A stretch of 64,000 nt of DNA from a virus. A program made the translations under genes and the position numbers. The notes below the pieces were generated by a model that worked only from the letters and a program-made list of their open reading frames with translations, was not told where the DNA came from and did not search any database. Every line of letters starts with the position of its first letter. Within the stretch, counting starts at the first letter, position 1. This document shows positions 2,620 through 46,392 of this stretch, one piece after another. The stretch covers positions 9,025 through 73,024 of the IMG/VR virus record IMGVR_UViG_3300024262_000026; one strand, given 5' to 3'.

Positions 2620-2622
2620 ATG

Positions 2623-2654
2623 AAAAAGTCACATTGTTAGATGTGACTTTTTTT
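2623..2654. terminator. Bidirectional intrinsic terminator
   Basis: AAAAAGTCACAT-loop-ATGTGACTTTTTTT between convergent genes. Confidence 0.85.
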
Positions 2655-2656
2655 AT

Positions 2657-3550: not shown

Positions 3551-3656
3551 CTTACTCTATTATTTTCACTTAATCTATATATAAAAATTGTAGTGCCCCC
3601 TAATCACTTTATTTGATATTTTTTTCAACTTTTATTTTTTATATCAATAAAAATAT

Positions 3657-3664
3657 TATCTTTG
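3657..3664 (+). promoter_or_regulatory. Bacteroidota-type -7 promoter element
   Basis: TATCTTTG upstream of 3687. Confidence 0.7.
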
Positions 3665-3686
3665 TACAAATTATAAAAGAAAAAAA

Positions 3687-5675
3687 ATGAGTAGAAAAGA
3701 CGATTTATTAAAATTATTCTCACAGAATACAAATTATTATTTTCATATTATTCCAAATGAACTTGGACAACTGATATATGTAAGTCAAGAAAAAGATGAA
3801 TATACTACCGAAGGATTAGAATTCAAACTCAACTCTATCATTGAAGGATTTCTCAATAAATCTGAAGAAATTAAATTCAAAAAAGTTGCACCATCAATAT
3901 ACTTCACAAAAGAAACAAATATTGAAAAATTGAAATATGAACTTGGTGAGGATATGATGGAAGATGCTAATTTTTCATCATTCATTGAAGATATTAAAGA
4001 TGAATACAGGGCTCTTGAAGTTGAAGATTTTCTTCTTTATGAAAAAGATCCTGATGCATATGAAAAGAAAAAAGAAGAAGAATATAAACAACAACAACTT
4101 GAAACTTGGGAAAGATATAAAAAACAATCCGAAGAACAAGAAAGAATTAAAAGAACCGCAATTAAAGAATATGATAATGATTTAGTAAAATTGTTCAAAG
4201 ATAATCTTACTCACGACATTATAAAAAAAGATAAAAAATGGAATTTAAAAAATCCATTTTCTCAAATAGTATATTCGATTCTTACAAATGATGAAGAACA
4301 AGGAAAAATGTGGCCGATGCGTGAAAATCAATCAATTACAGGTAATGAAAAATTTGAACCAATCTCCATTGATGGGAATTTGATGTCAATTTTACTTTCC
4401 GATAGAATGTCTGATACATATATCGTAAATTTTAAACTTAATGGTCCTGTTCTTGATATTGATAGTGTTGTAGGTCCTGTCGAATCTGACACCAAACATA
4501 TGTCAGACTATGATTTCCTTATGAAAATTTTTGATTTTGACATTACACCTAATTTTATTGATTGGAAAAATATGTACGAAAATGAAAAATTGGACGCAGT
4601 TGTTGATGAAATAATTAGACTTCATAATGAAGAAAAAGAACAAAAAGAGAAAGAAAAAAATGAAGTTGTAAATTCTTCTATTGCTAAGGCTTTCTTTATA
4701 ATTGATAAATATGAAGTACAAATTGGTGAGATACCTGGTATTATTGGAGAAAATATTTCAGATGAATTATTCAAAATTGTTGAGGATAAAGTAACTGAAT
4801 TAGAAATTGAGTTTAAAAGAGGTGATTGGTTAAATAACAATATCGAATTTATTGAAACTATTACTTATAATCAAGTTGAAAAAATTTATAAACATCTTAT
4901 CGAAAATGGATATATGTTAGATACATATAGACAAGAAACTGAATTTCCTTTTATGGATTTGAGAAAACCAGATACATCACAATACACTATTTATGTTGGA
5001 TGGGAAGATTCAGATGAACAATATGGTGATGGTGGCTATTATGATGATGAATTTTCTTTCAATATTTACACCTCTCACACAACAGATGTTGTGTATGATC
5101 AACCTGTTAAATGGATAGATCAAAGAATATCCCAACTCTTAAAACCATTGAATGGTGGGGATTTTTATATTGATTTTGGAGCCGCTGAAAATTTACATTC
5201 GGTAACAGTTAAAAACGCATCAAAAGGTAATTTGAAATTAAGAGTGAAAAATTTTATAAGTCAAATGGAAGACTTAGTCGATTCTACCGAAGGATTTGAA
5301 TGGTATAATGAAAATCCAACATATAATGGTAATAATAATAACAACACCAATAAGAATTTAAGCAATATGAATACTAATGATTATATGTTTGGTGTTTGTA
5401 TACCACCTCAGGTTGGTGATATGGAACCTCCAGCAATCGCAATGGTGACAAAGAATTTTTACATGAATAATGGTGGAGGTTTGGATGATTCTTTTGGCTC
5501 ACATAGTTTACCTAAAAATATTATAGATGCTCTAAATAGAGCAGGTATTTGTGGTGATGTTGAATTAATGGAATCAATATGGGAAGTAATAGATTACTCT
5601 AGAACTAAACAAGATATAATTAATAGTCTAGTAAAAGAAGGATTTGTTTATAGCCCAGATATGGATTCATTTTAA
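3687..5675 (+). CDS. Large acidic hypothetical protein
   Basis: 662-aa ORF with coiled-coil patches and an Asn-rich linker; lies between the vWA and AAA+ genes. Confidence 0.75.
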   Translation: MSRKDDLLKLFSQNTNYYFHIIPNELGQLIYVSQEKDEYTTEGLEFKLNSIIEGFLNKSEEIKFKKVAPSIYFTKETNIEKLKYELGEDMMEDANFSSFIEDIKDEYRALEVEDFLLYEKDPDAYEKKKEEEYKQQQLETWERYKKQSEEQERIKRTAIKEYDNDLVKLFKDNLTHDIIKKDKKWNLKNPFSQIVYSILTNDEEQGKMWPMRENQSITGNEKFEPISIDGNLMSILLSDRMSDTYIVNFKLNGPVLDIDSVVGPVESDTKHMSDYDFLMKIFDFDITPNFIDWKNMYENEKLDAVVDEIIRLHNEEKEQKEKEKNEVVNSSIAKAFFIIDKYEVQIGEIPGIIGENISDELFKIVEDKVTELEIEFKRGDWLNNNIEFIETITYNQVEKIYKHLIENGYMLDTYRQETEFPFMDLRKPDTSQYTIYVGWEDSDEQYGDGGYYDDEFSFNIYTSHTTDVVYDQPVKWIDQRISQLLKPLNGGDFYIDFGAAENLHSVTVKNASKGNLKLRVKNFISQMEDLVDSTEGFEWYNENPTYNGNNNNNTNKNLSNMNTNDYMFGVCIPPQVGDMEPPAIAMVTKNFYMNNGGGLDDSFGSHSLPKNIIDALNRAGICGDVELMESIWEVIDYSRTKQDIINSLVKEGFVYSPDMDSF

Positions 5676-7122: not shown

Positions 7123-7153
7123 AAAAAAGAGGCTCAATTTTGAGCCTCTTTTT
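7123..7153. terminator. Bidirectional intrinsic terminator
   Basis: AAAAAAGAGGCTCA-loop-TGAGCCTCTTTTT. Confidence 0.8.
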
Positions 7154-7556
7154 CTATTTTATCAAGTTTGATTTTTCTATCCCGTTTTAATAGTTCCTTT
7201 GTTGTAAAACCCCAAGCAATACATCCAAACCGAACATCAGTATCAATATCAGATTTACCTTTTACTGCGGTATCACCATCTATCGATGTAAGAGTTAAAC
7301 CATCTTTACAGATATGATATGCCCATAATGGCATCACTATTAAATTTTCATCCCAAGACGAAAACCCAAGTTCGAATAATTCATCCTTTGTAAACTTTGT
7401 AAAATCAATATCTTGATCTTCACAAAATTTGTCATATGCTTCACGAATTTGTTTAAGCTTAAAATCATCACCCCAACCATCATATTCAAAAGCCTGAGCA
7501 TTTGTCGAAATAATATAATTTTTATAACTGTTTATTTTCTGTACTTCTTCTCTCAC
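7134..7556 (-). CDS. Hypothetical protein with C-terminal RxxKLxxI motif
   Basis: 140-aa ORF; DTDVRFGCIAWG core; ends RKIKLDKIEKEAQN. Confidence 0.75.
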   Translation of the reverse strand: MREEVQKINSYKNYIISTNAQAFEYDGWGDDFKLKQIREAYDKFCEDQDIDFTKFTKDELFELGFSSWDENLIVMPLWAYHICKDGLTLTSIDGDTAVKGKSDIDTDVRFGCIAWGFTTKELLKRDRKIKLDKIEKEAQN

Positions 7557-15321: not shown

Positions 15322-16557
15322 TTATTCAAATAGTGAGCCATCATCTAAATCATCAGAGGAAATGATATTATCTGCTTCAATATCATTGAGTTTTTCATCA
15401 AACCCTTCTAATTCTTTAAGATATTCATCGTATGATGGATATTTAAAATATTCATAAATTATTGGTTCCATCGCCTTCAAAACATCAGCATTAAATACTT
15501 TTCTATTATAAAGTTGTTTTTCAGTTAATGATTTATCATCTAAATGCTTTACAAGCCACCTTGTCGATGGTTCATATGTAATCTCACCAGTAGATTTATC
15601 TAAAACTTTTTTTGCTTTTGCGATTCCAAGTTTATCAAAATTTTCAAATGTGCAAAAGAAATCTAATCCTTTATATGGATTTATACCTTTTGTGAAGTCA
15701 ATCTCAAATTTAACCTTCTTAGGTTTTGCTATTCTATTTTTCGCAGATTTCGCAGTAATAACAGAGCCACTTTTACCTAAATCTAATTCATCTTCTTGAC
15801 CAGTTTTTAACTTTGCATCAGATAAAAATAGAATTACACTCGCTGCATAATATAAACCTTCACCTCCACCCATAATAGTTTGAGGGAACATATCCATTGT
15901 TAAATATGTATGATTAGTCGCAACTAATGGAATACCTAAAAAACCTAAATCATTTGTTATAAGTCTAACGAGAGATTTAATTTGTTTTGCTCTTGTCATA
16001 TCTTGTTTAGATTTGAACGCAAGAACATCATCTTTTTCTTTTTCAGAAGCTAACATACCAATTGAATCGATAAAAATTATTGTTTTTGAGACATCCAAAC
16101 CTTCATCTTTCAATTTTTGTAACGCATCTAAAAATGATGTCAAAAACATTTTAATTTTCTCAACAACATTAGTTCTCATTAACATAAATTTGTTAGGATC
16201 AGTAGTGTCAATACCATACATTTCGAAATCTGTTTTCTCAATTGAAAACTCTGTATCTATCCATACAATATTATATCCTTCAAGTTGTGCGTTTCTTGCT
16301 ATGTTTAGGGAAATGAAACTCTTACCTGTCTGTTTAGGACCAGCAATTACAGTTATTTTATTGTTTGGTATACCACCCTTCAATATACTTTTAGATAATA
16401 AGCCATCTAAAATATGTATTCCAGTAGATATAAAATGTTTTTCTTTATCTAATTCTTCAATAGTTACAATATCTTTTTTAGATATATTGTCAATTAAATT
16501 AGAAATTTTTGAGAAATCAAAATCCTTACTAGACTTAGCGGATTTTCTTTTTGCCAT
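15322..16557 (-). CDS. uvsX: UvsX/RecA-like recombinase
   Basis: STG, GPKQTGKS, IDTE, IDSIG, DMTRAK, TNHTY, MGGG.G..YAAS, KNR. Confidence 0.9.
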   Translation of the reverse strand: MAKRKSAKSSKDFDFSKISNLIDNISKKDIVTIEELDKEKHFISTGIHILDGLLSKSILKGGIPNNKITVIAGPKQTGKSFISLNIARNAQLEGYNIVWIDTEFSIEKTDFEMYGIDTTDPNKFMLMRTNVVEKIKMFLTSFLDALQKLKDEGLDVSKTIIFIDSIGMLASEKEKDDVLAFKSKQDMTRAKQIKSLVRLITNDLGFLGIPLVATNHTYLTMDMFPQTIMGGGEGLYYAASVILFLSDAKLKTGQEDELDLGKSGSVITAKSAKNRIAKPKKVKFEIDFTKGINPYKGLDFFCTFENFDKLGIAKAKKVLDKSTGEITYEPSTRWLVKHLDDKSLTEKQLYNRKVFNADVLKAMEPIIYEYFKYPSYDEYLKELEGFDEKLNDIEADNIISSDDLDDGSLFE

Positions 16558-25526: not shown

Positions 25527-25981
25527 TGGCAAGTTTACATAAACCAATATCACCATTTTTCCCAAATCCAATTTTATTATTTGAACCTATCTATAACAAT
25601 TTAGTTGATATTGACTTTGGTGAGAATGTTTTAAATGAAAATTGTTTTAAAATAAAAGGCAATATTGCACACATTCACAACAATTATGATAATATAAGGA
25701 AAAAAAGTACATCACAAATAATAGAATCTTTGATTAATACTAATTTGCCAAAAGTTATATTTAATTATCACGATAAAAATGGTGAAGTATTAGAACAAAT
25801 AATTGTTTGCAATTTCAAATTTATAAAAATCATAAATAAATTAGATTTTAATTGGAATGAGAATACACTAAAAAAATTAAAAGTTCAATTTGAATATGAT
25901 AAAACTTTTCATTCTGAAAAAGAATACAATTCATATATTCGAAAAGAAAAATTAAACAAAATAAATGGACGAAAAGATTAA
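25526..25981 (+). CDS. Hypothetical protein (weak tail-tube-like pattern) with C-terminal RxxKLxxI motif
   Basis: EPIYNN...YHDKNGEVLEQ...LDFNW...LKVQFEYD; ends IRKEKLNKINGRKD. Confidence 0.65.
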   Translation: MASLHKPISPFFPNPILLFEPIYNNLVDIDFGENVLNENCFKIKGNIAHIHNNYDNIRKKSTSQIIESLINTNLPKVIFNYHDKNGEVLEQIIVCNFKFIKIINKLDFNWNENTLKKLKVQFEYDKTFHSEKEYNSYIRKEKLNKINGRKD

Positions 25982-26297
25982 AAAATTAGAAGAACATCTA
26001 AATTTTGTTTGGAGTTTAATTCCAAACAAACCAACATATGGAGAATTTAATAAAATATTTCCTGTTAAAAATAATGTGGAAGTATTAAGAAACTTTGAAA
26101 AAGAAAATGAATGGTTTGGTATAGCAAGATATGATACCGAAAATGAAGGCATTTCAATACTTAGTATGTTTGCATCTATCACAGACTTTTTAAGTGATGG
26201 TTGGAGATTAGCATTTGACACCGAAGGTGATAATAAAGATACACCAATAGAAGAACAAATAATTGTGGGATTTAAAATGATTAGACTTGATAATTAA
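25965..26297 (+). CDS. Hypothetical protein
   Basis: 110-aa ORF whose ATG lies in the codons following the upstream gene's tag. Confidence 0.7.
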   Translation: MDEKIKKLEEHLNFVWSLIPNKPTYGEFNKIFPVKNNVEVLRNFEKENEWFGIARYDTENEGISILSMFASITDFLSDGWRLAFDTEGDNKDTPIEEQIIVGFKMIRLDN

Positions 26298-26530
26298 TCA
26301 TCAACATTTTCAATGTAAGGAAATCTTTCTTTATTTCTCGGATCTATAATATCTTTGCGATATTCAAGAACATCTAATTTTATTTCTCTACACTTCTTTG
26401 CCACATCCTCTAATTTTCTTCTTAACCTAATAGATGCCGCCTTAATATTCTTACTATAAGTTTTATAATAATCAACTCTTGCTGACTCTAATATTTCAAT
26501 CAGTTCGTCAATTTCATTTAACTCACCCAT
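26294..26530 (-). CDS. Histone H1-like (Hc1-family, Bacteroidota-type) protein
   Basis: KAASIRLRRKLEDVAKKCREIKLDV resembles the KAAxxRxRK helix; likely ATG at 26530. Confidence 0.6.
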   Translation of the reverse strand: MGELNEIDELIEILESARVDYYKTYSKNIKAASIRLRRKLEDVAKKCREIKLDVLEYRKDIIDPRNKERFPYIENVDD

Positions 26531-26607
26531 AAAACTTATTTTTATTTTTATATATTGATTGAAATAGGACCCATACACCATAATATATAAAAATAAAAAT
26601 CATTATA

Positions 26608-27072
26608 ATGATGAAAAGAAGTGAATTTTTTGATCTATACAATAAATTGCAAGGTCTTAGATACCATAGTGACAACAAAAATTTTTCTTATGCCTTAATA
26701 AAAAATATTAAAGCTATTGAACAAGATATTAACAAACTTAATGAAGTTATAAAACCAACTGAAGAATTTCTACAATTTGAACAAGAGCGACTTGCTATTT
26801 GTCAATCACATTCAATTAAAGATGATAATGGTGACCCACTTTTAAATGGTGATGAATTTCAAATTGAAAATATTGAAAAATTTAATGAAGATTTAATACC
26901 ATTAAAGACGAAATATCAAGACATGTTAAATTATAGACAAGAACAAATAGAAAAGTATAATTCTCTTTTAGATCAAGAAATTGAAATGGAATTAGTTAAA
27001 ATAGGACCAGATGATTTACCTGATACTATAACACCAAACGAAATAGAAGATATCTATCCTATATTGTTATAA
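26608..27072 (+). CDS. Hypothetical helical protein (possible tail/fibre assembly chaperone)
   Basis: FSYALIKNIKAIE...ERLAIC..HSIKDDNGDP pattern; TAATATATAA at 26581. Confidence 0.55.
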   Translation: MMKRSEFFDLYNKLQGLRYHSDNKNFSYALIKNIKAIEQDINKLNEVIKPTEEFLQFEQERLAICQSHSIKDDNGDPLLNGDEFQIENIEKFNEDLIPLKTKYQDMLNYRQEQIEKYNSLLDQEIEMELVKIGPDDLPDTITPNEIEDIYPILL

Positions 27073-27760
27073 TAAATGCTTTTTTTCTTACAGATAATAT
27101 ATCACAAAAGGTGATGGAACTTATTTTGTCACCTTTTGTCCATATATTTTGAACCTTATTGTGTCCAACATATTGATGAATATTTTCTAATGGCTCCTCT
27201 AATTCTCGTTTATCCGCCCAAGTTGGTCCACCTATATAAGAATCACCACCTCTCCAAGATGATACTTGCATTAAAATATCTCTCCATTTATCATCATTTC
27301 CAATATCATTTAACACTTCAGCTAAATTTGAATTATCTTCTTTTAATCCAAAATATTTTAATACCTCAATATGTTCATCATACCACCAAACACTAATACC
27401 AGCATGTACAAAAATATGATTATCTCTTTGTAATGCAAATTGGAAAAGAGATTTATTTTTTTGAAAAACTTTTATGGTTTCTTTTAACCTTTCATTATAG
27501 TTTACTGAACTTGTATGGTATTTAGGATACCACATATATTGGGCATCGTGATTACCTATAAGTAATGTAACATTATCTGGGTGAGACTTTTTATAATTTA
27601 TAATCAAATTCAAATTTACAAGTGCATCACTATCATCAATCTTATTATCATAAGGATCACAATAATCACCCAGAAAAATAAAATGGGTATCTTTATTCTC
27701 ACCAACAAAATCCATCCAGGAATCTCTACCGTGAATATCACCTATAACACAAAATCTCAT
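27059..27760 (-). CDS. Calcineurin-like metallophosphoesterase
   Basis: GDIHG, GDYCD, GNHD, HAG, VGH motifs. Confidence 0.88.
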   Translation of the reverse strand: MRFCVIGDIHGRDSWMDFVGENKDTHFIFLGDYCDPYDNKIDDSDALVNLNLIINYKKSHPDNVTLLIGNHDAQYMWYPKYHTSSVNYNERLKETIKVFQKNKSLFQFALQRDNHIFVHAGISVWWYDEHIEVLKYFGLKEDNSNLAEVLNDIGNDDKWRDILMQVSSWRGGDSYIGGPTWADKRELEEPLENIHQYVGHNKVQNIWTKGDKISSITFCDILSVRKKAFIITI

Positions 27761-27815
27761 AAACAATTCTTTATTTAATGAATATACTTATAATATATCA
27801 CAACTGAATAAAAGT

Positions 27816-28154
27816 TTGATAATTATGGTTAATATAACATTTGACGAATATGTAAATATGATGGAAGACGAATCTAAATGGCAAATAATAAAAGATTTTG
27901 TTAATGAAACAAAGTACTTTCGTTCCAGAGATATTCCACTTGGAAGTACTGGAAAAGTATATGTAAACTATTTACACAAAGCTGGATTTTTAGGTAGACC
28001 TAAAAAAGGTATTTATTCATTAAACTTACATGTCGAAAATGATATAACATTATATAAAGTAACGGACTACGCTTATGGTGACAATAAAGGAGTAATCAAT
28101 AAAGTTGTTCGTAAAAACAAAATTATAAATTTAAATGAAATTTCAGAAGAATAA
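27816..28154 (+). CDS. Hypothetical (winged-helix-like) protein with C-terminal tag variant
   Basis: YVNYLHKAGFLGRPKKGIYSL; ends VRKNKIINLNEISEE. Confidence 0.65.
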   Translation: MIIMVNITFDEYVNMMEDESKWQIIKDFVNETKYFRSRDIPLGSTGKVYVNYLHKAGFLGRPKKGIYSLNLHVENDITLYKVTDYAYGDNKGVINKVVRKNKIINLNEISEE

Positions 28155-28452
28155 AGACGGTTACATAGAAGTTGAATATGAAGGTTCTTATTATTTTCTA
28201 GATGGTAAAAAATGGGTAAGAGATTTTAAAATTGATAACTCAACATATTACAGCAATACTGGTCATAACACAACAAGAAAATTTATTATTCCAGTAGGAC
28301 AACTATCTAGAAAACAGGCAGAAAAGCAAATAAAACAATTGATGGCACAATATACTGATAAAGAGGTATTTTACGATGAAATTCAATCTAAATTGACACG
28401 ATTATTAAGGAAAGCAAAATTAGATCAATTAAAAAATGTTGAAATTTTATGA
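28135..28452 (+). CDS. Hypothetical protein with portal-like segment and C-terminal RxxKLxxL motif
   Basis: RKFIIPVGQLSRKQAEKQIKQLMAQY; ends LRKAKLDQLKNVEIL. Confidence 0.65.
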   Translation: MKFQKNKDGYIEVEYEGSYYFLDGKKWVRDFKIDNSTYYSNTGHNTTRKFIIPVGQLSRKQAEKQIKQLMAQYTDKEVFYDEIQSKLTRLLRKAKLDQLKNVEIL

Positions 28453-28820
28453 GCAAATATTGGGTTAAAGTAAACGTTACTTGTAGGAACGACATCAAAC
28501 TTTATACAGATGATAAAGAAAAACTTAATGAACTAGAAAAAGATGCTGTTACACAAGCATTTTTACATGAAAGAACTTGTAAATTATGTGCAGATATCAA
28601 ATGGATGAGAGAACAAAGAGAAAAAGAAGATGCACTTTATAGAGTACAATCAGTTGCAAGATGTGGAGAAATATTATTTGTTGAACACACAAATCCATCT
28701 GAAGTAAGAAAAACACAGATGGAAAGAAATGTATGTCAACAAGTGGCGGAACATAGAAGAAATTGTATAAAATGTATAAGAATAGAAAAATTAGATAAAA
28801 TAAAGAATTTAACAATTTAA
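28449..28820 (+). CDS. Hypothetical Cys/His-rich protein with C-terminal RxxKLxxI motif
   Basis: Two HxxxCxxC units; ends IRIEKLDKIKNLTI. Confidence 0.7.
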   Translation: MSKYWVKVNVTCRNDIKLYTDDKEKLNELEKDAVTQAFLHERTCKLCADIKWMREQREKEDALYRVQSVARCGEILFVEHTNPSEVRKTQMERNVCQQVAEHRRNCIKCIRIEKLDKIKNLTI

Positions 28821-28831
28821 TAAAATTAAAA

Positions 28832-29428
28832 ATGGAATTAGAATATACACAAAACGATTTAAAATCAGCATTTGAATTTGGTAAAAAGTATCCAAATTTA
28901 AAATTAAAAGATTGGTTTAAATATGAGAAAACTCAACTAACAAAAGAAGAACAAAAATTATTTAAATTTATTGATGTTGCAACAGTACCGATAGGTAAAT
29001 CCAAATTGTTTTTTATGAATTGGAACGGTGTTGGAGGTGGACATTTTTCTGAACCTTTTAAAATATTCAAGAGAAAATATTTTAACAAATATTATCAATT
29101 TTTTAATAATTGTTCTGGAGAGTTTAGTGTGATAGTAACAGGAGAAGATTTTTTCAACTTAAAAACCTTTGATAAAACTGATTATGAAGGTGTGTATGTA
29201 AAAGAAATAATTCATAATGATGTAAAAATTACTATTATGAATTATATTGATTTTGATGGCGATAAAGATGAACATCAAGCTCATATGTTCTATTCTTGGA
29301 GAAACACTTTAGAACGAAATAATTACCATTTTTGGCAAATGGCGAATTGGGACGTTTATATTGATAAACCTTATAATTTAAACGTCACACCAGCATTAGA
29401 ACTTTTAGAAAAAAAAATCATTAAATGA
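28832..29428 (+). CDS. Hypothetical protein
   Basis: 198-aa ORF in the tightly packed + strand array. Confidence 0.7.
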   Translation: MELEYTQNDLKSAFEFGKKYPNLKLKDWFKYEKTQLTKEEQKLFKFIDVATVPIGKSKLFFMNWNGVGGGHFSEPFKIFKRKYFNKYYQFFNNCSGEFSVIVTGEDFFNLKTFDKTDYEGVYVKEIIHNDVKITIMNYIDFDGDKDEHQAHMFYSWRNTLERNNYHFWQMANWDVYIDKPYNLNVTPALELLEKKIIK

Positions 29429-29691
29429 AATATAAAGTAGGTGATAAATTAGTTTGTAGAGAAAATTTTGGTGATTGTATGGATACCATAATTTGGTATA
29501 AAAAACATAATTCATATGAAATAAATGACATCAGAAATAATTGGTTTGAAGAAAATAAAACTGCATATTTTATATCAATTAATGATAGTTCTGATCTTGA
29601 ATTTGAATATTCTGAACTACTTAAACATTTTTATATACCAAGTGAACTTAGAAGAAAAAAATTAGATATCATAAATGAAATATCCGAATGA
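29425..29691 (+). CDS. Small SH3/KOW-like protein with C-terminal RxxKLxxI motif
   Basis: MKYKVGDKLVC; ends LRRKKLDIINEISE. Confidence 0.7.
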   Translation: MKYKVGDKLVCRENFGDCMDTIIWYKKHNSYEINDIRNNWFEENKTAYFISINDSSDLEFEYSELLKHFYIPSELRRKKLDIINEISE

Positions 29692-30718
29692 TTTTATAAA
29701 TAAAAATATAGTTGGCGACTCAGTAGAATTGATGAAGCAAATTCCTGATAATGTTATTGATTTAACAGTAACATCACCACCATACGATAATCTCAGAACA
29801 TATAAAGGTAAAATAAAAGATAATATTACTTTTGATGATTATTCATTTCCTTTTCAGGAAATGGCACAAGAACTCTATCGTATAACAAAGAAAGGTGGTA
29901 TCGTTGTATGGGTAGTAAACGATCAAGTAAAAAATGGTGGAGAAACTGGCACATCATTTAGAATGGCATTATATTTTCAACAAATAGGATTCACTATTTA
30001 TGACACTATGATTTATCACAAAAATGGTCCACCATTTCCAGAATCTGGTAGATATTCACAAGTTTTTGAATATATGTTTGTATTTTCAAAGGGTAAACCA
30101 AATACTGTCAATTTAATTAAAGATAAAGAAAATCGTTGGTCAGGACACCAAAATTTTGGCACACCTTCTGCAAGAACAAAAGAAGGCAACTTAAAAAAAT
30201 CTGAAGCATTTACTGTTGCAGAATATGGCACAAGATATAATGTTTGGTACATCAATGCTGGTAAAGGCTACACAACTAAGGACGATTATGCTTACGTTCA
30301 CCCAGCAATGTTCCCAGAAAGTTTATCGGAGGATCATATTTTATCTTGGACAAATGAAGGTGATATTGTATTAGATCCGATGTGTGGAGCAGGCACCACT
30401 TGTAAAATGGCAAAACTTAATAATCGTAAATACGTGGGTATGGACATCAATCAAGAGTATGTTGATATATCTGACAGACGAGTAGAGATCGTGTCTTACA
30501 ACAAGGATAAACCTAACCCAAAGGTTAAATTTATCGTTTCAAGGGATGAAATCTTAGAAAAACGAAAGAAAACTAGAGAAGAAAACAAAAGAAAGAAAGA
30601 AATGGATTTAACGGAAAAAGATATAGAAATTTTGGAAAAAACAATTGAAAATCCACCAGAACCAAATGAAAAATTAAAGGAAGCTGCGGAAAAATATAAA
30701 GAAGATATAGATGATTAG
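29675..30718 (+). CDS. DNA methyltransferase (N4/N6 family, beta class, likely m4C) with C-terminal extension
   Basis: TSPPY catalytic motif, HPAMFP, VLDPMCGAGTT SAM motif. Confidence 0.9.
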   Translation: MKYPNDFINKNIVGDSVELMKQIPDNVIDLTVTSPPYDNLRTYKGKIKDNITFDDYSFPFQEMAQELYRITKKGGIVVWVVNDQVKNGGETGTSFRMALYFQQIGFTIYDTMIYHKNGPPFPESGRYSQVFEYMFVFSKGKPNTVNLIKDKENRWSGHQNFGTPSARTKEGNLKKSEAFTVAEYGTRYNVWYINAGKGYTTKDDYAYVHPAMFPESLSEDHILSWTNEGDIVLDPMCGAGTTCKMAKLNNRKYVGMDINQEYVDISDRRVEIVSYNKDKPNPKVKFIVSRDEILEKRKKTREENKRKKEMDLTEKDIEILEKTIENPPEPNEKLKEAAEKYKEDIDD

Positions 30719-30893
30719 CGAAGAATTACTTAAAATTCACTATAATAGTCGTAATGATGGTTTTGATGAAGAAGAAGATGATGACTATGAAAAAATTCAA
30801 GAAATTTATAAGCAATCCGCATATGAATATGAAAAGTGTGTGAAATTATATATTGATTATATGGAACAAGAAAAAATAAAAGTAAACAGATGA
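30711..30893 (+). CDS. Small acidic hypothetical protein
   Basis: 60-aa ORF overlapping the MTase end. Confidence 0.5.
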   Translation: MISEELLKIHYNSRNDGFDEEEDDDYEKIQEIYKQSAYEYEKCVKLYIDYMEQEKIKVNR

Positions 30894-30915
30894 GTAAATT
30901 AAAAAGTGAATTATT

Positions 30916-31650
30916 TTAAAGTTTATGATTATTTATTCTATTTTGTGCTAATTCAAAAGTTTCAGACTCTATCTCAATACCAATAAATTTTCTATTAGTG
31001 TTAAGGCAAGCTATTCCTGTAGTACCTGAACCCATAACATTATCCAACACAACATCGCCTTCATTTGTGTAAGTTTTTATTAATTCTTCTAACAATTCTA
31101 TACTTTTCTCTGTTCTATGAAGAGACTTGCTAGGGTGTGGCTTTTGAAAAGAAAAAATAGATGTTGGGTATTTTTCTGTTGTGCCCGCTCTCGAATCATC
31201 AACCATATCAAAATCACCATAATTTTGATTTTTATGTTCTTTATTTAAATATGATGTACCTTTAGAATGTAATGGTTTGCCACATATAAATTGTGGATTA
31301 TAAGTTGGCAATTTTGAATAAAAGACAGCTATTTGTTCATGAACCCTCAATGGCATCCTGTTTGCATTTAAAAATCCACTAATCAATTGTTTATCCCAAA
31401 TTATATCATATCTAAACATTTTTCTATTTGAATTAACTAAATCAACATAAAATATACCTTGAGAGAATAATAATATTGGACCATTATCTTTAATAACTCT
31501 TTTATATTGCTTCCATAATGGCTCAAAAGGAATTCTAATATCCTTCTTATTTTGTGTCACACCAAACGGCAAGTCTGCCAATATTATATCGACACTTTTA
31601 TCTTCTATTTTATTCATCACATTTAAACAATCACCCTTATATAATATCAT
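30916..31650 (-). CDS. DNA methyltransferase (N4/N6 family, beta class)
   Basis: ADLPFG, HRTEKS, VLDNVMGSGTTG. Confidence 0.88.
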   Translation of the reverse strand: MILYKGDCLNVMNKIEDKSVDIILADLPFGVTQNKKDIRIPFEPLWKQYKRVIKDNGPILLFSQGIFYVDLVNSNRKMFRYDIIWDKQLISGFLNANRMPLRVHEQIAVFYSKLPTYNPQFICGKPLHSKGTSYLNKEHKNQNYGDFDMVDDSRAGTTEKYPTSIFSFQKPHPSKSLHRTEKSIELLEELIKTYTNEGDVVLDNVMGSGTTGIACLNTNRKFIGIEIESETFELAQNRINNHKL

Positions 31651-31754
31651 ATATTTTATTAATTTTTACTTTATATATTTAAAAAATGATATTGTTTTTG
31701 TTACCTTTTTACATTTACATTTTTAATATATAAATAAAAACCACTTTTTATAAA

Positions 31755-32798
31755 ATGAAATGGACAAAAGAAGAATGTACAAAAGAGGCACAAAAATATT
31801 TATATAAAAAAGATTTTAAAAAATATTCATCAGGCGCATATACATCATCAATTAAAAATAAATGGTTGGATGATATAACTAAACATATGATATCTTTACG
31901 AAAAAGCAAAGATGAGTGGACATTAGAAGAATGTAGAGATATTGCAAAAAAATACAAAACAAGGACAGAATTTAATAAAAAAAGTATATCAGCTTATAGA
32001 ATATCATTATCTAATGATTGGATAGCTGATGTTTGTTCACATATGAATTGTTATGGTAATAGGTATTTGAGATGTATATACTCATATGAATTTAGTGATA
32101 ACTCAATATATATTGGGTTAACATATAATACGGATAATAGACATAAAAAACATATGTTTAAAGGAACAGTAAAAGAACATATGATTAAAATTAACGAGAA
32201 TCCAAAAATTAAAAAATTAACAGAATATCTACCAATAAATGAAGCAAAAAATGAAGAATATAAATATGTAGAATTTTATAAAAAAAATGGCTGGAAAATT
32301 TTGAACAAAATAAAAACAGGGGGAGTTGGAGGCACATCAATCATATGGAATTATGAAAATTGTAAAAAGGAATCATTGAAATATAAAAGTAGAAGTGAAT
32401 TTGCAAAAAATAACGGTAGCGCATACTATTCATCTATAAAAAACAAATGGCTAGATGATATATGTTCTCATATGATACTAAAAAAGAAACCTAATGGATA
32501 TTGGAATTATGAAAATTGTAAAAAAGAAGCCTTAAGATATAAAACTAAAAAATTTTTTTATAAAAACTCAAAAGGTGCTTATAACTCAGCAAAAAGAAAC
32601 AAATGGCTTAATAATATCTGTGAACATATGATAGGTAATAAAAACATAGGATATTGGAATTATGAAAATTGTAAAAAAGAAGCTTTAAAATATAAAACTA
32701 AAACAGAATTTAAAACTAAATGTGGTAGTGGCTATTTTTATAGCTATAAAAACAAATGGCTTAATGATATCTGTGAACATATGACAAAAAGCGATTGA
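31755..32798 (+). CDS. GIY-YIG-like endonuclease flanked by five ~50-aa helical repeats
   Basis: CIYSYEFSDNSIYIGLT...R...H...E...LN; repeats W(T/N)xEEC/ENC..EA.KY....F.....AY....NKWL.DIC.HM. Confidence 0.7.
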   Translation: MKWTKEECTKEAQKYLYKKDFKKYSSGAYTSSIKNKWLDDITKHMISLRKSKDEWTLEECRDIAKKYKTRTEFNKKSISAYRISLSNDWIADVCSHMNCYGNRYLRCIYSYEFSDNSIYIGLTYNTDNRHKKHMFKGTVKEHMIKINENPKIKKLTEYLPINEAKNEEYKYVEFYKKNGWKILNKIKTGGVGGTSIIWNYENCKKESLKYKSRSEFAKNNGSAYYSSIKNKWLDDICSHMILKKKPNGYWNYENCKKEALRYKTKKFFYKNSKGAYNSAKRNKWLNNICEHMIGNKNIGYWNYENCKKEALKYKTKTEFKTKCGSGYFYSYKNKWLNDICEHMTKSD

Positions 32799-32806
32799 TT
32801 TAATTA

Positions 32807-33334
32807 ATGGAACTACCTAATAATGAACAAATATATAAAGATATGTTTGATATGATGAATAAGGTTTTCAAAGAAAATAACGTTTTTCAAAGAAAACCAA
32901 CAATACTTTATGATGATTATTATACAAATTTTATAACATTTTTGAAAAATAGCTTTGAATATGATCGTTTTCAAAATGAAAAGTTAAATATTGTTGATTA
33001 TGTTGATAATTTTAAAAATTTAGAACTATTCTTTAAAATTATCAGTAATACGAATGTTTTTTTAGTTGAACAACCATCATTTATTTTGCATTATCTTCAA
33101 GATGATAACCAACTAACTACAATTACTAAACAAGTATCCGAAACAAACATTTATGGCTTTGTTGATGAATTTAATAAAAGCAATAAAATATTTATTTTAT
33201 ATATGATTAGGAGTAATGGAATGTTGAGATATGTCACAGTTGATAAAGATCCAAGATACATACAACTTAATGTGAAAGAAAGATTAAAGAAAGAAAGAAG
33301 ATTAAAATTAGAACAAATAAATGAAACAATATAA
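32807..33334 (+). CDS. Hypothetical protein with C-terminal RxxKLxxI motif
   Basis: Ends ERRLKLEQINETI. Confidence 0.7.
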   Translation: MELPNNEQIYKDMFDMMNKVFKENNVFQRKPTILYDDYYTNFITFLKNSFEYDRFQNEKLNIVDYVDNFKNLELFFKIISNTNVFLVEQPSFILHYLQDDNQLTTITKQVSETNIYGFVDEFNKSNKIFILYMIRSNGMLRYVTVDKDPRYIQLNVKERLKKERRLKLEQINETI

Positions 33335-33707
33335 ATGGATAATATGGTTTCCTAAAAAATGGGAGAGACATACACATTCATCTCCTTCTGTGCTTTATGG
33401 ATATTTAGATGGTGAAATATTTATATCAAATAAATATCTTTTCAATACTGACATTGAAAGTGAATCTAATGGTTTCACACCTATTGATGAAAGATTTAAA
33501 GAAAAATATTATTATGAATTTTTTGATTCTAAAGATGATGTCGTTATATTGAGCAAAGAACTTCAAAGGGAAAAATATAAAATAAAACAAGAATTTCAAG
33601 ATAAAATGGAAAACTTTTATTCTAAAACATCTTTAAAAAAGATGAAAAATAAAATTAGAGAAGCGAAATTAAAACAAATAAATGAGCAAATTTACGATAG
33701 GGGATAG
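33321..33707 (+). CDS. Hypothetical protein with C-terminal RxxKLxxI motif
   Basis: Ends IREAKLKQINEQIYDRG. Confidence 0.7.
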   Translation: MKQYKWIIWFPKKWERHTHSSPSVLYGYLDGEIFISNKYLFNTDIESESNGFTPIDERFKEKYYYEFFDSKDDVVILSKELQREKYKIKQEFQDKMENFYSKTSLKKMKNKIREAKLKQINEQIYDRG

Positions 33708-33951
33708 AGTTATTTATATTGGTTTCAATGATGATGGTTTAGATGGTCCAAATGCTTGGAAATTAGAAAGATTGCAAGAATATACTATCACAAATAAAGC
33801 ATTTGAAACACATAAAGATACAGGTATGTTTTATGGTGTGAGAGATTATAAAGGTGTAGAAACTACTTGGTATAAAGAAAAGGATTTTATAAGTATTGTT
33901 GAAGCTAGAAAATTAAAATTAGATAAGATAAATGATAGATATAACATATAA
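33682..33951 (+). CDS. Small SH3/KOW-like protein with C-terminal RxxKLxxI motif
   Basis: MSKFTIGDRVIYIG; ends ARKLKLDKINDRYNI. Confidence 0.7.
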   Translation: MSKFTIGDRVIYIGFNDDGLDGPNAWKLERLQEYTITNKAFETHKDTGMFYGVRDYKGVETTWYKEKDFISIVEARKLKLDKINDRYNI

Positions 33952-34765
33952 TAGAACAGAAAACACAACTCGGGTAGAATTATCAACATTTAACATTTTT
34001 AATGAGGAACAATTACCTCTTGTAGTAAAATTTAAAAATTTTATTAACAATAAAATAGTTTGGACTCGAAAATTAGATGAAGGTTGTTGGGTTGAATGGT
34101 CAGGTGGTGAAGTCATATACAATTTTACAATTGATACTGCTCAAGAACAACGAGTATTAGATTGGAAATATCAAGTTGAAAATAATGGCACACTTGTAGA
34201 AAAAACATTATATTATTTCATTAAAAATACCCCACATAGAACTAAAGGACTTATTGTTGGTTCACATAATGGATTATGGGGTCAATGGATATTTCCAGTA
34301 ATAGAAAATGCTTGTGATGTTGTAATGGTTGATGGTAGTTCACTTCAATTGGAAGAAGCCAAAATAAACTATTCTCATCTAAATAATTGTAAATTTATAA
34401 ATGAAATAGTTACACCTGATGGTAAAGATGTTACTTGGTTTCAAGGTAAAGAAGGGTGTACAGATACCGTGGATAAGAAAATTATTTCAAAATTTTTAAA
34501 CGAAGATGAAATCATAAGTAGTTTTAGAACGACTATATCAATAAACAATATTTTTGAACAATACGGAAACTTTGATTGGCTCTATTTAGATGCTGAAGGT
34601 ATAGACTCAGATTTAATATTATCTCTTAATTATCATCCTGGTTTAATAATATATGAACCTGATCATATCTCTGATAAACAAAATATCAAATTGATGGAAT
34701 GGTTTAAATTAAATGGGTATAAAGTATTTGAAGAATTAGATTGTATAGCAATAAAAGAAATATGA
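33932..34765 (+). CDS. FkbM-like SAM-dependent methyltransferase with N-terminal extra domain
   Basis: IVGSHNG, VMVDG, FDWLYLDAEGID, IIYE. Confidence 0.65.
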   Translation: MIDITYNRTENTTRVELSTFNIFNEEQLPLVVKFKNFINNKIVWTRKLDEGCWVEWSGGEVIYNFTIDTAQEQRVLDWKYQVENNGTLVEKTLYYFIKNTPHRTKGLIVGSHNGLWGQWIFPVIENACDVVMVDGSSLQLEEAKINYSHLNNCKFINEIVTPDGKDVTWFQGKEGCTDTVDKKIISKFLNEDEIISSFRTTISINNIFEQYGNFDWLYLDAEGIDSDLILSLNYHPGLIIYEPDHISDKQNIKLMEWFKLNGYKVFEELDCIAIKEI

Positions 34766-35022
34766 GATACGAAAAAGAATATTTAGATAAAATTGGAATG
34801 AAAGTATCACACAAAATTGATGAAGATACAATGGCACCAATAGTAACATTTGAACTTAATGGTGTTGAATCTACAATAAAAATGACAAGACTTGATATGG
34901 AAGATTTTAAAAGTGGTCCACCATATGATGATTTTATTGTTAAAAGAATTAACTCACATATAACAGAATTAATAAAAATTGTTAGGAAAAAGAAATTGGA
35001 AGATATAAATGAAATGGACTGA
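34762..35022 (+). CDS. Hypothetical protein (paralog A) with C-terminal RxxKLxxI motif
   Basis: ATG overlaps upstream TGA; TMAP...NG...TR..MEDFK; ends VRKKKLEDINEMD. Confidence 0.7.
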   Translation: MRYEKEYLDKIGMKVSHKIDEDTMAPIVTFELNGVESTIKMTRLDMEDFKSGPPYDDFIVKRINSHITELIKIVRKKKLEDINEMD

Positions 35023-35290
35023 AGAAAGAAGAAAAGCATACGGTATTGATTTAGATACTATGAGTGAAGCGACAATGGCACCAAGATTAAGAATAACAAT
35101 TAATGGATACTCAACCTTAATGTCATTAACTAGAGAATTTATAGAAGATTTAAAATGGCAAACACCGAATTCAGAAGTGTTTATTGATAGTATGATAGAT
35201 GATGAAATTGAAAGACACCCTGAATTTAAAAGGATAGTCAGAAAAAAGAAATTGGAACAAATTGAACGATTGGACAGAACGGATAGATAA
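35009..35290 (+). CDS. Hypothetical protein (paralog B) with C-terminal RxxKLxxI motif
   Basis: TMAP...NG...TR..IEDLK; ends VRKKKLEQIERLDRTDR. Confidence 0.7.
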   Translation: MKWTEERRKAYGIDLDTMSEATMAPRLRITINGYSTLMSLTREFIEDLKWQTPNSEVFIDSMIDDEIERHPEFKRIVRKKKLEQIERLDRTDR

Positions 35291-35291
35291 T

Positions 35292-35564
35292 ATGTATTGG
35301 TGGGATGAATATAAAAAAGAAACTATTATAATCTCCAAAGAAGATGTTAATGAATCAGTAGGTAAAGGTATGCCTACTAAGATCATAAAGAAAAACACAA
35401 AACTAAAAATTACAGATAGTTTCAAATTTATGATATTTGTAGAAGATGAAAATAGAAATTTGGGGGTAATTGATACTAAAGATATAAATAGATTTTATAA
35501 TACTAAAGAAAGTGCTAAAATTATTAGAAAAGAAAAATTAGATAAGATAAATGATAAAATATAA
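35292..35564 (+). CDS. Hypothetical protein with C-terminal RxxKLxxI motif
   Basis: ATG at 35292 (ORF track uses TTG 35262); ends IRKEKLDKINDKI. Confidence 0.65.
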   Translation: MYWWDEYKKETIIISKEDVNESVGKGMPTKIIKKNTKLKITDSFKFMIFVEDENRNLGVIDTKDINRFYNTKESAKIIRKEKLDKINDKI

Positions 35565-36108
35565 TTTTGGAATAGAATGTGAAATATCTTGGAATAAATT
35601 TCTCTGTGTTAATATGGGTGAAGAAAGACGATATAAACAAGAATTTGAAAATTTTAATGAATTTTTCTATTTTTTAGAACACAATAAACGAACTATAACA
35701 AAATTATTATTTGATGGGTATGAATATATTCTTCAAAATGGACTATTACATAATTTATACGGACCTGCAAAATTAAGACATAAAGAAAAAGAAGATGGAG
35801 ATCCATTTTTCGGCACAACCAAATGGTTTTTTATCAATGGTAAATTGGTAACCGATAAATTAGAAAACTATAGGGGATGTAAGAATTTAGAAGATTTTGA
35901 AAATAATGAAATTTTCTTTTACGAAGAAGTAACAGGTAAAAAATCTGGTAGAGATGAAAAGACTGGACAACTTTATAGACGAAAAGAGGGTATTGATTAT
36001 ATAAAACATCCAATAAATTTAGAATCACTTAGACAAAAAGATATAAGAAAAAAGAAATTAGACCAAATAGATGAGCAAGATAATTATAATCAGCAATACC
36101 CAATTTAA
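35551..36108 (+). CDS. Hypothetical protein with LHxxxGPA unit and C-terminal RxxKLxxI motif
   Basis: GLLHNLYGPA...WFFINGK; IRKKKLDQIDE near the end. Confidence 0.7.
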   Translation: MIKYNFGIECEISWNKFLCVNMGEERRYKQEFENFNEFFYFLEHNKRTITKLLFDGYEYILQNGLLHNLYGPAKLRHKEKEDGDPFFGTTKWFFINGKLVTDKLENYRGCKNLEDFENNEIFFYEEVTGKKSGRDEKTGQLYRRKEGIDYIKHPINLESLRQKDIRKKKLDQIDEQDNYNQQYPI

Positions 36109-37039
36109 CATATCAAAAAACCTTACAACTAAAGAATGGTTGAAGAATATGGATTATTATTTCAACAACGAATTTATACCTTATTTAAAGCAAAATAAGA
36201 GCGATAACGACATATTAGTACACTTAGGTAATCTACTATCAAATACCAAAAACATCAACTTAGAAGTCTTAAAATTCATTCAGGAGACATTTGAGAGTAT
36301 AAGTTCAATACTACCAGTCTATATTTTAAACGGTGAAAATGATACACACACAAAAACCATCTTAAACAACATTAAAGATATTGAAATAATATCAGAACCT
36401 AAAGAAATTGAAATTTTATTAGACCAAAGATTCGCAATGTTACCAAGTAATAGTAAAGTAGAAGATATTGACAAATTTGATTCTGATTATTGTTTTTTTC
36501 ACTTTGATATTAATACACCTCAAAGAGATTCAATACTTAAAAAATTATCAAAATTTCAAAAATGTTATTGTGGTTATTATGATAAAAATGGTGTTATGAA
36601 AAATATTAAATTTTTAGGTTCACCATACAACTTAGAAAAAGATGAAAAGAAAGGGTTTATTGTTCTAGAAACACACACTAATAAAGATAAATTTATTCTT
36701 AATAAAATAAGTCCATCATTTAAAAAAATTACAATAAATGATGATGAAGATTTTGAAATAGATAAATCCATATTTTTAAATAACTACGTGAGTCTCACAT
36801 TAAATAAAAAACTTTTTGTTGATAATAAACTAAAAATAGAAATGTTATTATCAGAAAATGATTTTAAAAATGTTTCTTATACGGATGATGATATTAAAAG
36901 AGATAGAGATCTGATACAATTAGATGGCGAATCAGTTTCATTGAAAGAGATGATATCCGAATATATACAGAAATCAGAAATAGATAATAAAGATAGATTA
37001 TTACAAGAATTTGAAAAAATAACAAAATTAAATGGATAA
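36071..37039 (+). CDS. gp47/Mre11/SbcD-like protein with degenerate metal-binding motifs
   Basis: IISNTQF, VHLGNL, LNGEND, YCGYYD, FLGSPY...KKGF...NKISPSF match the gp47 layout but lack the D/H ligands. Confidence 0.7.
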   Translation: MSKIIIISNTQFNISKNLTTKEWLKNMDYYFNNEFIPYLKQNKSDNDILVHLGNLLSNTKNINLEVLKFIQETFESISSILPVYILNGENDTHTKTILNNIKDIEIISEPKEIEILLDQRFAMLPSNSKVEDIDKFDSDYCFFHFDINTPQRDSILKKLSKFQKCYCGYYDKNGVMKNIKFLGSPYNLEKDEKKGFIVLETHTNKDKFILNKISPSFKKITINDDEDFEIDKSIFLNNYVSLTLNKKLFVDNKLKIEMLLSENDFKNVSYTDDDIKRDRDLIQLDGESVSLKEMISEYIQKSEIDNKDRLLQEFEKITKLNG

Positions 37040-37235
37040 TTATTACAAAGAATTATTAAAGAAACATTATGAATCAATAAATGAAAAAGATATACAAGAG
37101 TATATGGATTTCTGTTTGGATTACGTTAAAGAAAACATCATAAATTGTTATAGTAATGAGAAATCAACAAAAAATGTTATTGAAGAATTATTTAAAAGAG
37201 GTATGGCTAAAAAATGGAAATTAAAACATGATTGA
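37032..37235 (+). CDS. Small hypothetical protein
   Basis: 67-aa ORF overlapping both neighbours. Confidence 0.55.
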   Translation: MDNYYKELLKKHYESINEKDIQEYMDFCLDYVKENIINCYSNEKSTKNVIEELFKRGMAKKWKLKHD

Positions 37236-37494
37236 TTTAAAAGGTAAAGTAAATTTTAGGGATTTTACTACAGAAGATTTATTGGAATTGGGAATACAAA
37301 GTATTTCTACAATATCTGAGGCTTCTTGGAAACCAAAAGTTATGTTTAAATTTTTGGACGGCAATGAAGAATCATTTAGTGTAAATAAAGATGAAAATAT
37401 TGAAGATAAAATAAACAATAAAATAAACGAAATTGTTAGAAAGAAAATAGTAGAACAACGAAAAGAAAAACTAAACCAATTAAAATGTTATTAG
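37228..37494 (+). CDS. Hypothetical protein with C-terminal RxxKLxxL motif
   Basis: Ends QRKEKLNQLKCY. Confidence 0.7.
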   Translation: MIDLKGKVNFRDFTTEDLLELGIQSISTISEASWKPKVMFKFLDGNEESFSVNKDENIEDKINNKINEIVRKKIVEQRKEKLNQLKCY

Positions 37495-37754
37495 ATTTCA
37501 CAACATTGTCAGATGATCAAATACAATTTTTCCTAAAATTTTTAAAAGCTGACATAATTGAAAAAGGAGAAATTGAAAGATATATATTATCAGGTAAATG
37601 TATCAAAATTAAAATATCGTATTATGATACTATTATAATTGAACCTGAAAAAATTATATTTTATCCTGAGGTTGGTACACCTCAAACTATTCTCACAATT
37701 GAAAATATTCAAAATTGTGTTAATCTATATAATGAATTGATTAAAAATAATTAG
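37485..37754 (+). CDS. Hypothetical protein
   Basis: 89-aa ORF, last in the array before the terminator. Confidence 0.6.
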   Translation: MLLDFTTLSDDQIQFFLKFLKADIIEKGEIERYILSGKCIKIKISYYDTIIIEPEKIIFYPEVGTPQTILTIENIQNCVNLYNELIKNN

Positions 37755-46140: not shown

Positions 46141-46392
46141 ATGATAACTAATTTTAAATTATTTATAGAGAGCGTTGAAGTAACACCTAACAACACTTCT
46201 GGTTCGGCTGGTGATACATCATCAACAAGAGATCAAGGTGGTTACCTAGTGTCTGGAAATGATGGAAATCCTGGTATTCAATTTACACCAAAAGGTGTTG
46301 ACGACATAAGCAAGTCTTATAAGGATAAAAAACGAAAATATAAAAGATATTTTAGGAAAAATAAAAAATATAAAGATGAAAAACATAAATAG
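46141..46392 (+). CDS. Small protein: CTS-like leader, S/G/T-rich middle, basic tail
   Basis: MITNFKLFIES...KKRKYKRYFRKNKK. Confidence 0.65.
   Translation: MITNFKLFIESVEVTPNNTSGSAGDTSSTRDQGGYLVSGNDGNPGIQFTPKGVDDISKSYKDKKRKYKRYFRKNKKYKDEKHK

Follow-up and report, generated by a model that had tools for sequence, protein, structure and literature searches.

A C-terminal tag joint as a probable dual-coded gene boundary in the small-gene arrays of a huge phage

The closest described parallel to the element treated here comes from T4-related phages, in whose plastic genome regions a short conserved element, the PeSL (promoter-early stem-loop), is repeated at the edges of small non-essential genes and carries the expression signals for the gene that follows, as passages of the published account describe (PMC2839356). 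According to the same passages, PeSLs are intergenic, have about 100 bp conserved and combine a sigma-70-like promoter with a G/C stem-loop terminator, a Shine-Dalgarno sequence and a start. Where one phage has a gene between two such elements, a relative has a single hybrid element, as described for ORFan192 in RB49 and phi1. The window analysed in this work is a stretch of 64 kb (G+C 28%) of the 73,024-bp virus record IMGVR_UViG_3300024262_000026. It carries a boundary element, here called the tag joint, in which the DNA that encodes a peptide motif (the tag) near the end of one gene leads directly into the nested ATG of the next. The joint differs from a PeSL in being only about 30 nucleotides (nt) long and lying within coding sequence, in the absence of a hairpin and of promoter matches beyond chance level, and in its proposed action at the level of translation, to which it adds a peptide motif of the upstream protein. 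For PeSLs, moreover, mini-circles have been demonstrated. The ORFan192 case is paralleled by gene 33321, which stands between two joints in the window and is lacking in a relative, L133.

Translationally coupled overlapping genes, with ATGA or TAATG overlaps, are another likeness, since in them a downstream start also precedes the upstream stop on one messenger RNA. Adhin and van Duin reportedly described in 1990 a re-initiation by scanning back after termination, and the distance of 14-38 nt between start and stop at the joints is within the range of such back-scanning. The difference is that the overlap at a joint appears to be set by the peptide motif and not by the stop codon, the position of which looks free. 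By analogy, the joint would be a variant of coupled overlapping genes and of PeSL-like boundary elements. The tag can also be compared with terminal targeting peptides, such as the T4 capsid-targeting sequence or the MuA-type C-terminal RRKKAI signal for ClpX. These are likewise short basic motifs at one terminus of unrelated phage proteins; the tag, however, has a variable tail behind it and is not at the extreme C-terminus. Concerning initiation, passages on Flavobacterium johnsoniae describe A-rich start regions without Shine-Dalgarno sequences, with adenines at -14 to -11, -6 and -3 and an unfavourable U at -3 (PMC6847099). The Bacteroidia regions described there resemble those of the present phage in the scarcity of Shine-Dalgarno sequences (a like word precedes 4 of its 83 other genes), in the upstream A-tract and in low structure. 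A literature search found no description of the tag or the joint.

The tag joint as peptide end and start region

Nine ATGs of the window (25965, 28135, 29675, 33321, 33682, 33932, 35009, 35551 and 36071) share the same upstream register, AGA/CGA-AAA-nnn-AAA-TTA-nnn-nnn-ATA-A, which the upstream frame reads as the core R-[KR]-x-K-[LI]-x-x-[IL] followed by xAT-G (Table 1). A preliminary description of this DNA had reported nine junctions in one fixed register, a tenth at 37485 shifted by 1 nt, and a sequence common to the junctions at 33932 and 35551. All three points were borne out: the ATG of 37485 lies at offset +2, one nt beyond the register of the nine, and a 23-mer is exactly identical between joints 33932 and 35551. 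A weight matrix built from the nine joints (cut-off at least 12 bits) gave 15 matches in the whole 73-kb record, namely 13 plus-strand tag sites at 25938-37487, one secondary match within the 33321 joint and one on the minus strand at 7150-7180, while each of 20 shuffled controls gave 0-2. All 14 tag sites are in the tag reading frame, with a stop 3-12 residues beyond, and the ATG stands at +1 behind the core in nine of them, against a chance background of 5.5% (4835 of 88102 codon pairs of the form xAT-G in long open reading frames, ORFs; binomial p = 7e-9). The five tags without a +1 ATG are those at 28408-28431, 28779-28802, 35240-35263, 37459-37482 (ATG at +2) and, on the minus strand, 7155-7178.

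Table 1. Positions of the joints, the tags and associated features in the window (aa, amino acids).
Feature	Position	Strand	Core or tag	Remarks
Fourteenth tag	7134..7178 (tag 7155-7178)	-	RKIKLDKI	end of 66-aa ORF; no same-strand gene behind
UvsX-like gene	15322-16557			
Joint 1	25940..25981	+	RKEKLNKI (25940-25963)	nested ATG 25965 (110-aa gene); upstream stop 25979-25981; overlap 17 nt
Joint 2	28110..28154	+	RKNKIINL	nested ATG 28135 (tagged 105-aa gene); overlap 20 nt
Tag	28408..28452	+	RKAKLDQL	no +1 ATG; next gene from 28449, ATGA overlap with the stop
Tag	28779..28820	+	RIEKLDKI	no nested ATG; next gene from 28832
Joint 3	29650..29691	+	RRKKLDII	nested ATG 29675, start of N6/N4 DNA methyltransferase
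Candidate promoter word AATATATAA	31725..31733	+		ahead of gene 31755
Joint 4	33296..33334	+	RRLKLEQI	nested ATG 33321; left edge of the 33321 cassette, which L133 is without
Joint 5	33657..33707	+	REAKLKQI	nested ATG 33682; right edge of the 33321 cassette
Joint 6	33907..33951	+	RKLKLDKI	nested ATG 33932 (277-aa gene); in L132 the same tag, then gene C homologue at +1
Joint 7	34984..35022	+	RKKKLEDI	nested ATG 35009, gene B; gene A is 34762-35022
Tag of gene B	35240..35290	+	RKKKLEQI	no nested ATG; gene C from 35292
Joint 8	35526..35564	+	RKEKLDKI (gene C)	nested ATG 35551, gene D (fam2)
Joint 9	36046..36108	+	RKKKLDQI (fam2)	nested ATG 36071 within GAT-G, SbcD-like gene; overlap 38 nt
Tag	37459..37494	+	RKEKLNQL	next ATG 37485, offset +2; overlap 10 nt

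The tag is selected at the peptide level and is common to unrelated protein families. Its codons vary synonymously (CGA, CGT, AGA and AGG for arginine; TTA, TTG and CTA for leucine), and the minus-strand tag is present though no gene stands behind it. In fam2, the family of gene D, 43 loci were examined (that of the window, 7 from viral contigs and 35 from metagenomes), some of them near-duplicates, and 37 hold a complete ORF. The tag is kept in 36 of these 37 ORFs, including loci where the next gene is 24-114 nt off or absent. R166 and K169 never vary in an alignment of 61 fam2 homologues (42-77% identity), and conservation is at least 90% at D164 and L170. Hence, the role of peptide tag that had been assigned to the junction sequence holds. 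An AlphaFold2 model from this alignment (mean predicted local distance difference test score 93.8) places the tag in the middle of the C-terminal helix, residues 157-182, and we infer that it is a common docking or targeting helix. Such a common tag would point to one partner shared by a great many orphan proteins of phages.

Fold and family comparisons did not account for the bodies of the tagged proteins. Foldseek with the fam2 model against the PDB gave nothing at E <= 0.001, a Pfam search found no family on any tagged protein, and a protein atlas search returned only unnamed viral clusters with SH3-like structural leads. In relatives the tag was found on at least eight distinct protein clusters, and the tagged families differ in size, one being of about 88 aa (SH3-like by its structure neighbours in the atlas, a lead only) and another a beta-rich family of 180 aa. 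The tagged proteins of the window mostly share no common cluster, and no relatives of the SbcD-like protein were found in viral contigs. A motif of DNA only, either a promoter or an initiation region with a by-product peptide, was ruled out as a candidate by the single frame, the synonymous arginine and leucine codons and the tag without a downstream gene.

Some observations on tagged families can be added here. The sole complete fam2 homologue without the tag, in relative L162, ends ...ALKLREKEGSKTFLKTNKTK. The family of about 88 aa forms tandem arrays on the minus strand, with 13 paralogues in L122 (locus 1227-5128) and 10 in L128 (locus 734-4075). Its ends are conserved (N-terminal M-K-x-Q-N-L-N-V-G-D-K-L-L-C-K, C-terminal F-Y-T-K-Q-E-E-R-K-I-K-L-E-K-L) and its middle is hypervariable, so that it looks like a diversifying binding family; the window has a member at 29425-29691 and probably another at 33682-33951. 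In L131 (290-370), a 14-nt deletion between two TTAGAA repeats in the tag of the gene B homologue has shifted the frame, and the tag is lost. The A-rich and internally repetitive tag appears to be prone to slippage.

The DNA that encodes the tag also looks like a start region of this phage. Upstream of the other genes of this phage adenine makes up 63-73% at -18 to -14, and an ATG at +1 puts the A-run of the codons for x3-K4-L5 (GAA AAA TTA) at the same positions. With a leave-one-out start matrix the nine joints score 5.6 on average (2.9-8.4), against 3.25 ± 4.7 for real genes and -4.9 ± 4.6 for 1717 internal ATGs. The joints are also nearly unstructured, since folding of 40 nt gave minimum free energies of 0 to -1.2 kcal/mol (mean -0.18), compared with -2.6 ± 2.4 for random windows. 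Furthermore, K4 is written AAA in 108 of the 112 tags with a start within 8 nt and in 43 of the 55 without one (Fisher 4e-4), the paralogues in these counts not being independent. The proposal that the junctions provide ribosome entry is supported in that they score 5.6 on the phage's own start matrix and are A-rich and unstructured. Both functions, peptide tag and ribosome entry, appear well supported.

Outside the joints, the word GAAAAAATAAT recurs upstream of most genes and ends about 10-12 nt before the ATG, for example at 10037, 13266 and 16557 on the minus strand and at 20713 and 37032 on the plus strand. Where genes abut, this word forces Lys/Asn-rich C-termini on the upstream proteins (...RKK*, ...EKNNN*, ...KKNIN*).

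Regarding the use of the nested ATGs as starts, a stop stands one codon upstream of each of the nine in its own frame. Downstream, the nearest ATG, GTG or TTG of that frame is 18-132 codons away, and starts there would leave 50-390 nt uncovered between genes that are otherwise densely packed. In the methyltransferase from 29675, the Pfam domain begins at residue 28 and the sole other in-frame starts are a TTG at codon 19 and Met20; the VGD at residues 12-14, upstream of both, aligns by eye with a KGD near the start of the second methyltransferase (30916-31650). In fam2, M1 is at least 90% conserved among the 61 homologues. The codon behind the core is AAT eight times and GAT once at the +1 joints of the window. 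In relatives, the next ORF begins at +1 behind 34 of 171 unique tagged ORFs, with TAT in 19 and AAT in 15, and where a +1 start is lacking the tags show 16 different residues at this position; the gene calls of the relatives are simple first-ATG ORFs, in which other start codons would be missed. At the orthologous fam2-to-SbcD joint the window has GAT-G and L132 has AAT-G, with a downstream protein 87% identical. Behind the core it is the ATG that is conserved, and not the overlapping residue (N, D or Y). A frameshift fusion of neighbouring genes was considered and ruled out by the stop that directly precedes each nested ATG in its own frame.

The tail behind the core comprises 4-12 codons with a median of 5, close to the median of 6 found when this frame is read at 84 other gene starts (Mann-Whitney p = 0.79); the tail codons look unselected. 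At the nine joints the downstream start precedes the upstream stop on the same strand, with overlaps of 14-38 nt. Overlaps of at least 8 nt were found at 10 of 13 tagged and 7 of 47 untagged junctions in the window, and at 87 of 134 tagged and 25 of 171 untagged junctions in relatives. Across 147 tagged junctions, the next start is at +1 in 42, +4 in 27, +7 in 10, +10 in 4 and +13 in 7; a further 29 are at +2, +5 or +8 (ATGA type), two are at -1 and none is deeper in the core, the counts in relatives being inflated by tandem paralogues. The window is the extreme of this pile-up of starts at the 3' edge of the constrained core.

These results lead to the reading that the joint is a gene boundary with dual coding, set in the polycistronic arrays in which a huge phage carries small accessory genes; to this reading we give a probability of roughly 0.6. 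The last eight constrained codons would encode the C-terminal helix motif, and the same 25 or so A-rich, unstructured nt would be the initiation region of the next gene, without a Shine-Dalgarno sequence. The upstream frame would then extend into the next gene, out of phase with it, by 4-12 unselected codons before a stop occurs by chance. Ribosomes could reach the nested ATG directly, through the open A-tract, or could re-initiate there once they have stopped 14-38 nt downstream. Position +1 would be the nearest one for a start that does not overlap the constrained core, with starts piling up there and thinning out at +4, +7 and beyond. The use of the joint for chained translation in polycistronic arrays is very likely.

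On the other hand, several observations weigh against a dual-coded boundary. In fam2 orthologues the offset of the next start ranges from 1 to 114, and in L132 a 9-nt insert shifts the orthologous joint to +10. Given this spread of offsets in relatives, the register is not fixed in the family, and the fixed register first described stands for the nine joints of the window and not for the fam2 orthologues. The C-to-B junction of L131 and L132 seems to use a TTG two nt inside the core. With respect to the Bacteroidia start regions (passages of PMC6847099), the A-run is at -18 to -14 instead of -14 to -11, and the consensus joint has A at -6 but T at -3. In addition, a Bacteroidota host is suggested by kinship with phages of 634-735 kb alone (see below).

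Huge phages have hundreds of small genes without known function, and the expression and turnover of their arrays are largely obscure. The joint would be one short sequence with two readings, a conserved peptide end and a start region, in a host system without Shine-Dalgarno sequences. It could account for the extended out-of-frame overlaps of such arrays and for their odd C-terminal tails, and it could give gene callers a rule to locate the true starts in these genomes.

Concerning transcription, the word AATATATAA is found 10-30 nt ahead of the genes that open apparent transcription units, at 16684, 26582, 31725, 40718, 46128 and 52088 on the plus strand and at 24348, 25037, 26548, 31671 and 50236 on the minus strand. 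With at most one mismatch it has 214 matches, against 159 ± 12 in shuffles, and it is a candidate phage promoter. Since no exact copy of it is present at any joint, the 14 genes of 31755-37754 probably share one messenger RNA as a single transcription unit. A scan for sigma-70-like promoters gave 117 sites versus 116 ± 14 in shuffles, and a terminator scan gave no terminator-like site at any joint.

Gene gain, loss and order at the joints

The arrays of relatives differ from the window in gene content and order. The two joints on either side of gene 33321 have AAATTA-n-AACAAATAAATGA in common, 13 nt exact. In L133 the tag of the 32807 homologue leads straight into the start of the 33682 homologue through one hybrid joint with a 30-nt in-frame insert, and in run X1 a low-depth minor contig has 33325 connected to 33681 by the 24 letters that L133 shows there. 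In a similar way, L128 and L121 have the family fam24 between two joints. It is missing in L122, where a hybrid joint fuses the fam2 tag to the start of the gene found behind fam24 elsewhere. The gene order is C-B-D in L131 and L132 (about 75-82% nt identity) and B-C-D in the window, and the B-to-D joint of L131 and L132 holds two ATAAAT units. Moreover, three different genes follow the tag of the 33682 homologue, at +1 in the window, +1 in L132 and +7 in L133. The joints appear to mark sites of single-gene exchange between relatives.

These cases could be explained if the joint were a recombination module, that is, a portable homology of about 27-30 nt at which general recombination (UvsX-like) shuffles single-gene cassettes in register. 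Such exchange would hold the register at +1 and carry the tag over to unrelated proteins, in a coding analogue of PeSL shuffling. The hybrid joints, the altered order, the three genes behind one tag and the presence of the tag on many unrelated families are in favour of it, and since every gene ends in the joint sequence of about 30 nt, the joints are direct repeats. Because the pattern of two elements in one genome and one hybrid in another matches that of the PeSLs (passages of PMC2839356), joint-mediated shuffling is plausible, though unproven.

Nevertheless, several results speak against a recombination module, which we regard as doubtful. The longest stretch of exact identity between two joints has a median of 9 nt and reaches 20 nt in 1 and 12 nt in 11 of the 78 pairs, with a mean in-register identity of 0.67, and the pair that flanks 33321 is merely 28th of the 78 in identity. 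The recombination homology that had been proposed for the joint is favoured by the hybrid joints of L133 and L122; these short exact runs speak against it. Third positions point in the same direction: comparison inside and outside the joint, as the preliminary description advised, showed no raised synonymous identity, with values for the tag core and the rest of the gene of 354/448 (0.79) and 1869/2197 (0.85) in one paralogue array and of 170/226 (0.75) and 985/1249 (0.79) in a second. The ends of gains and losses are mixed. Although the changes at 33321, at fam24 and in the order of B and C map to joints, the 5.3-kb indel between L122 and L128 has its left end 45-70 nt within a gene, a 1.6-kb indel is in an untagged spacer, and the L132 deletion has its left end within the 32807 homologue. 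Furthermore, in overlapping arrays selection for intact genes alone could leave the surviving breakpoints at the joints. The main phage population of run X1 tiles the array without any cassette variant seen, rare forms being hidden in contigs; in this comparison of the contigs of runs X1 and X2 at 80% likeness, most of the joints listed have sides of less than 30 letters and are uninterpretable.

A wider proposal joins the dual-coded boundary and the recombination module into a self-propagating 'expression socket', a coding repeat of about 30 nt in huge phages that would be docking helix, ribosome entry with a start codon for any reading frame that arrives behind it, and direct repeat for general recombination at once, so that single genes could be excised, inserted and reordered in register with no site-specific recombinase. 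It would thus be a counterpart of PeSLs and integron cassettes within coding sequence. We consider this unlikely. If joint homology did drive exchange, phages would have a second, translation-level form of modular shuffling beside the PeSLs.

The comparison with integrons made in the preliminary description is not supported. Integron arrays are similar in that small genes without promoters of their own stand head to tail, each with a repeated boundary element. Nevertheless, the joint is coding, has no attC-like fold (minimum free energy 0 to -1.2) and shows no sign of a site-specific mechanism. A PHROGs scan of 56 window proteins found no IntI or other integrase, although a distant one is possible since the record is about 10% of the genome. 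Without an integrase among these 56 proteins and without a folded repeat, the comparison fails.

The joint could also have been inherited only, being copied through tandem duplication of one tagged gene whose bodies later diverged, with the register as a relic that serves neither initiation nor recombination. The tandem paralogues of L122 and L128, with their conserved ends and a joint at each unit, fit this, and genes A and B of the window are paralogous. It is, however, quite improbable. Four of the nine genes with nested starts are untagged, among them the N6/N4 methyltransferase and the SbcD-like nuclease, which are of unrelated families, and the other two (277 aa and 110 aa) match no family. 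The lack of a common cluster for most tagged window proteins, the different sizes of the tagged families and the retention of the ATG despite residue changes also speak against it.

Finally, it is hardly tenable that the ATGs are an unused by-product of I-N-E/D residues in AT-rich codons, with the real starts downstream, the outcome named beforehand as a refutation: AAT makes up 82% of the Asn codons, so that an N before D, E or G will almost always give ATG, but the tags without a following gene carry K three times and E twice at this position and never N, the residue varies among N, D and Y while the ATG stays, and the gaps before the next starts, the conserved M1 of fam2 and the excess over the 5.5% background all stand against it.

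Source fragment and neighbouring features

The 73,024-bp record is about 10% complete according to CheckV. The PHROGs scan matched window proteins to, among others, a UvsX-like recombinase, a DnaB-like helicase, ribonucleotide reductase, baseplate and tail-fibre proteins, RtcB, homing endonucleases and two DNA methyltransferases. The UvsX-like protein shares 48-62% identity with translated stretches from five records of uncultured phages (634-735 kb), and by this kinship the window comes from a huge, Mahaphage-type phage. Passages of PMC7162821 assign genomes of 634-735 kb to the 'Mahaphage' clade, with hosts predicted among Bacteroidetes.

A megablast of the array against phage records gave zero matches. 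The huge phage records LR756501 and LR756504 had no match to the pattern of tag plus INE/D, and their matches to the core pattern were at control level. A scan of viral contigs with a loose DNA pattern gave at least 116 stretches with one match apiece.

Within the accessory array, the two N6/N4 DNA methyltransferase genes, 29675-30718 on the plus and 30916-31650 on the minus strand, are convergent. They are followed by the gene of a 347-aa protein (31755-32798) with four repeats of about 70 aa (W-N-Y-E-N-C-K-K-E-A-L-K-Y-K-T...N-K-W-L-x-x-I-C-x-H-M), which matches PHROG 20046, function unassigned; its homologues adjoin the arrays in L121, L122 and L127.

A second kind of paralogue array is present in L119 (46-5488, minus strand), with N-termini MKI[KQR]RFNES and C-termini K-[FY]-N-L. 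Its genes are joined by ATGA overlaps (TTATGA), so the same phage group has another terminal motif together with another joint. In the window, outside the main array, an 83-aa ORF (46141-46392) ends ...YFRKNKKYKDEKHK, and an HNH endonuclease gene (46376) starts in GAT-G 17 nt before its stop. This junction may be a degenerate tag joint.

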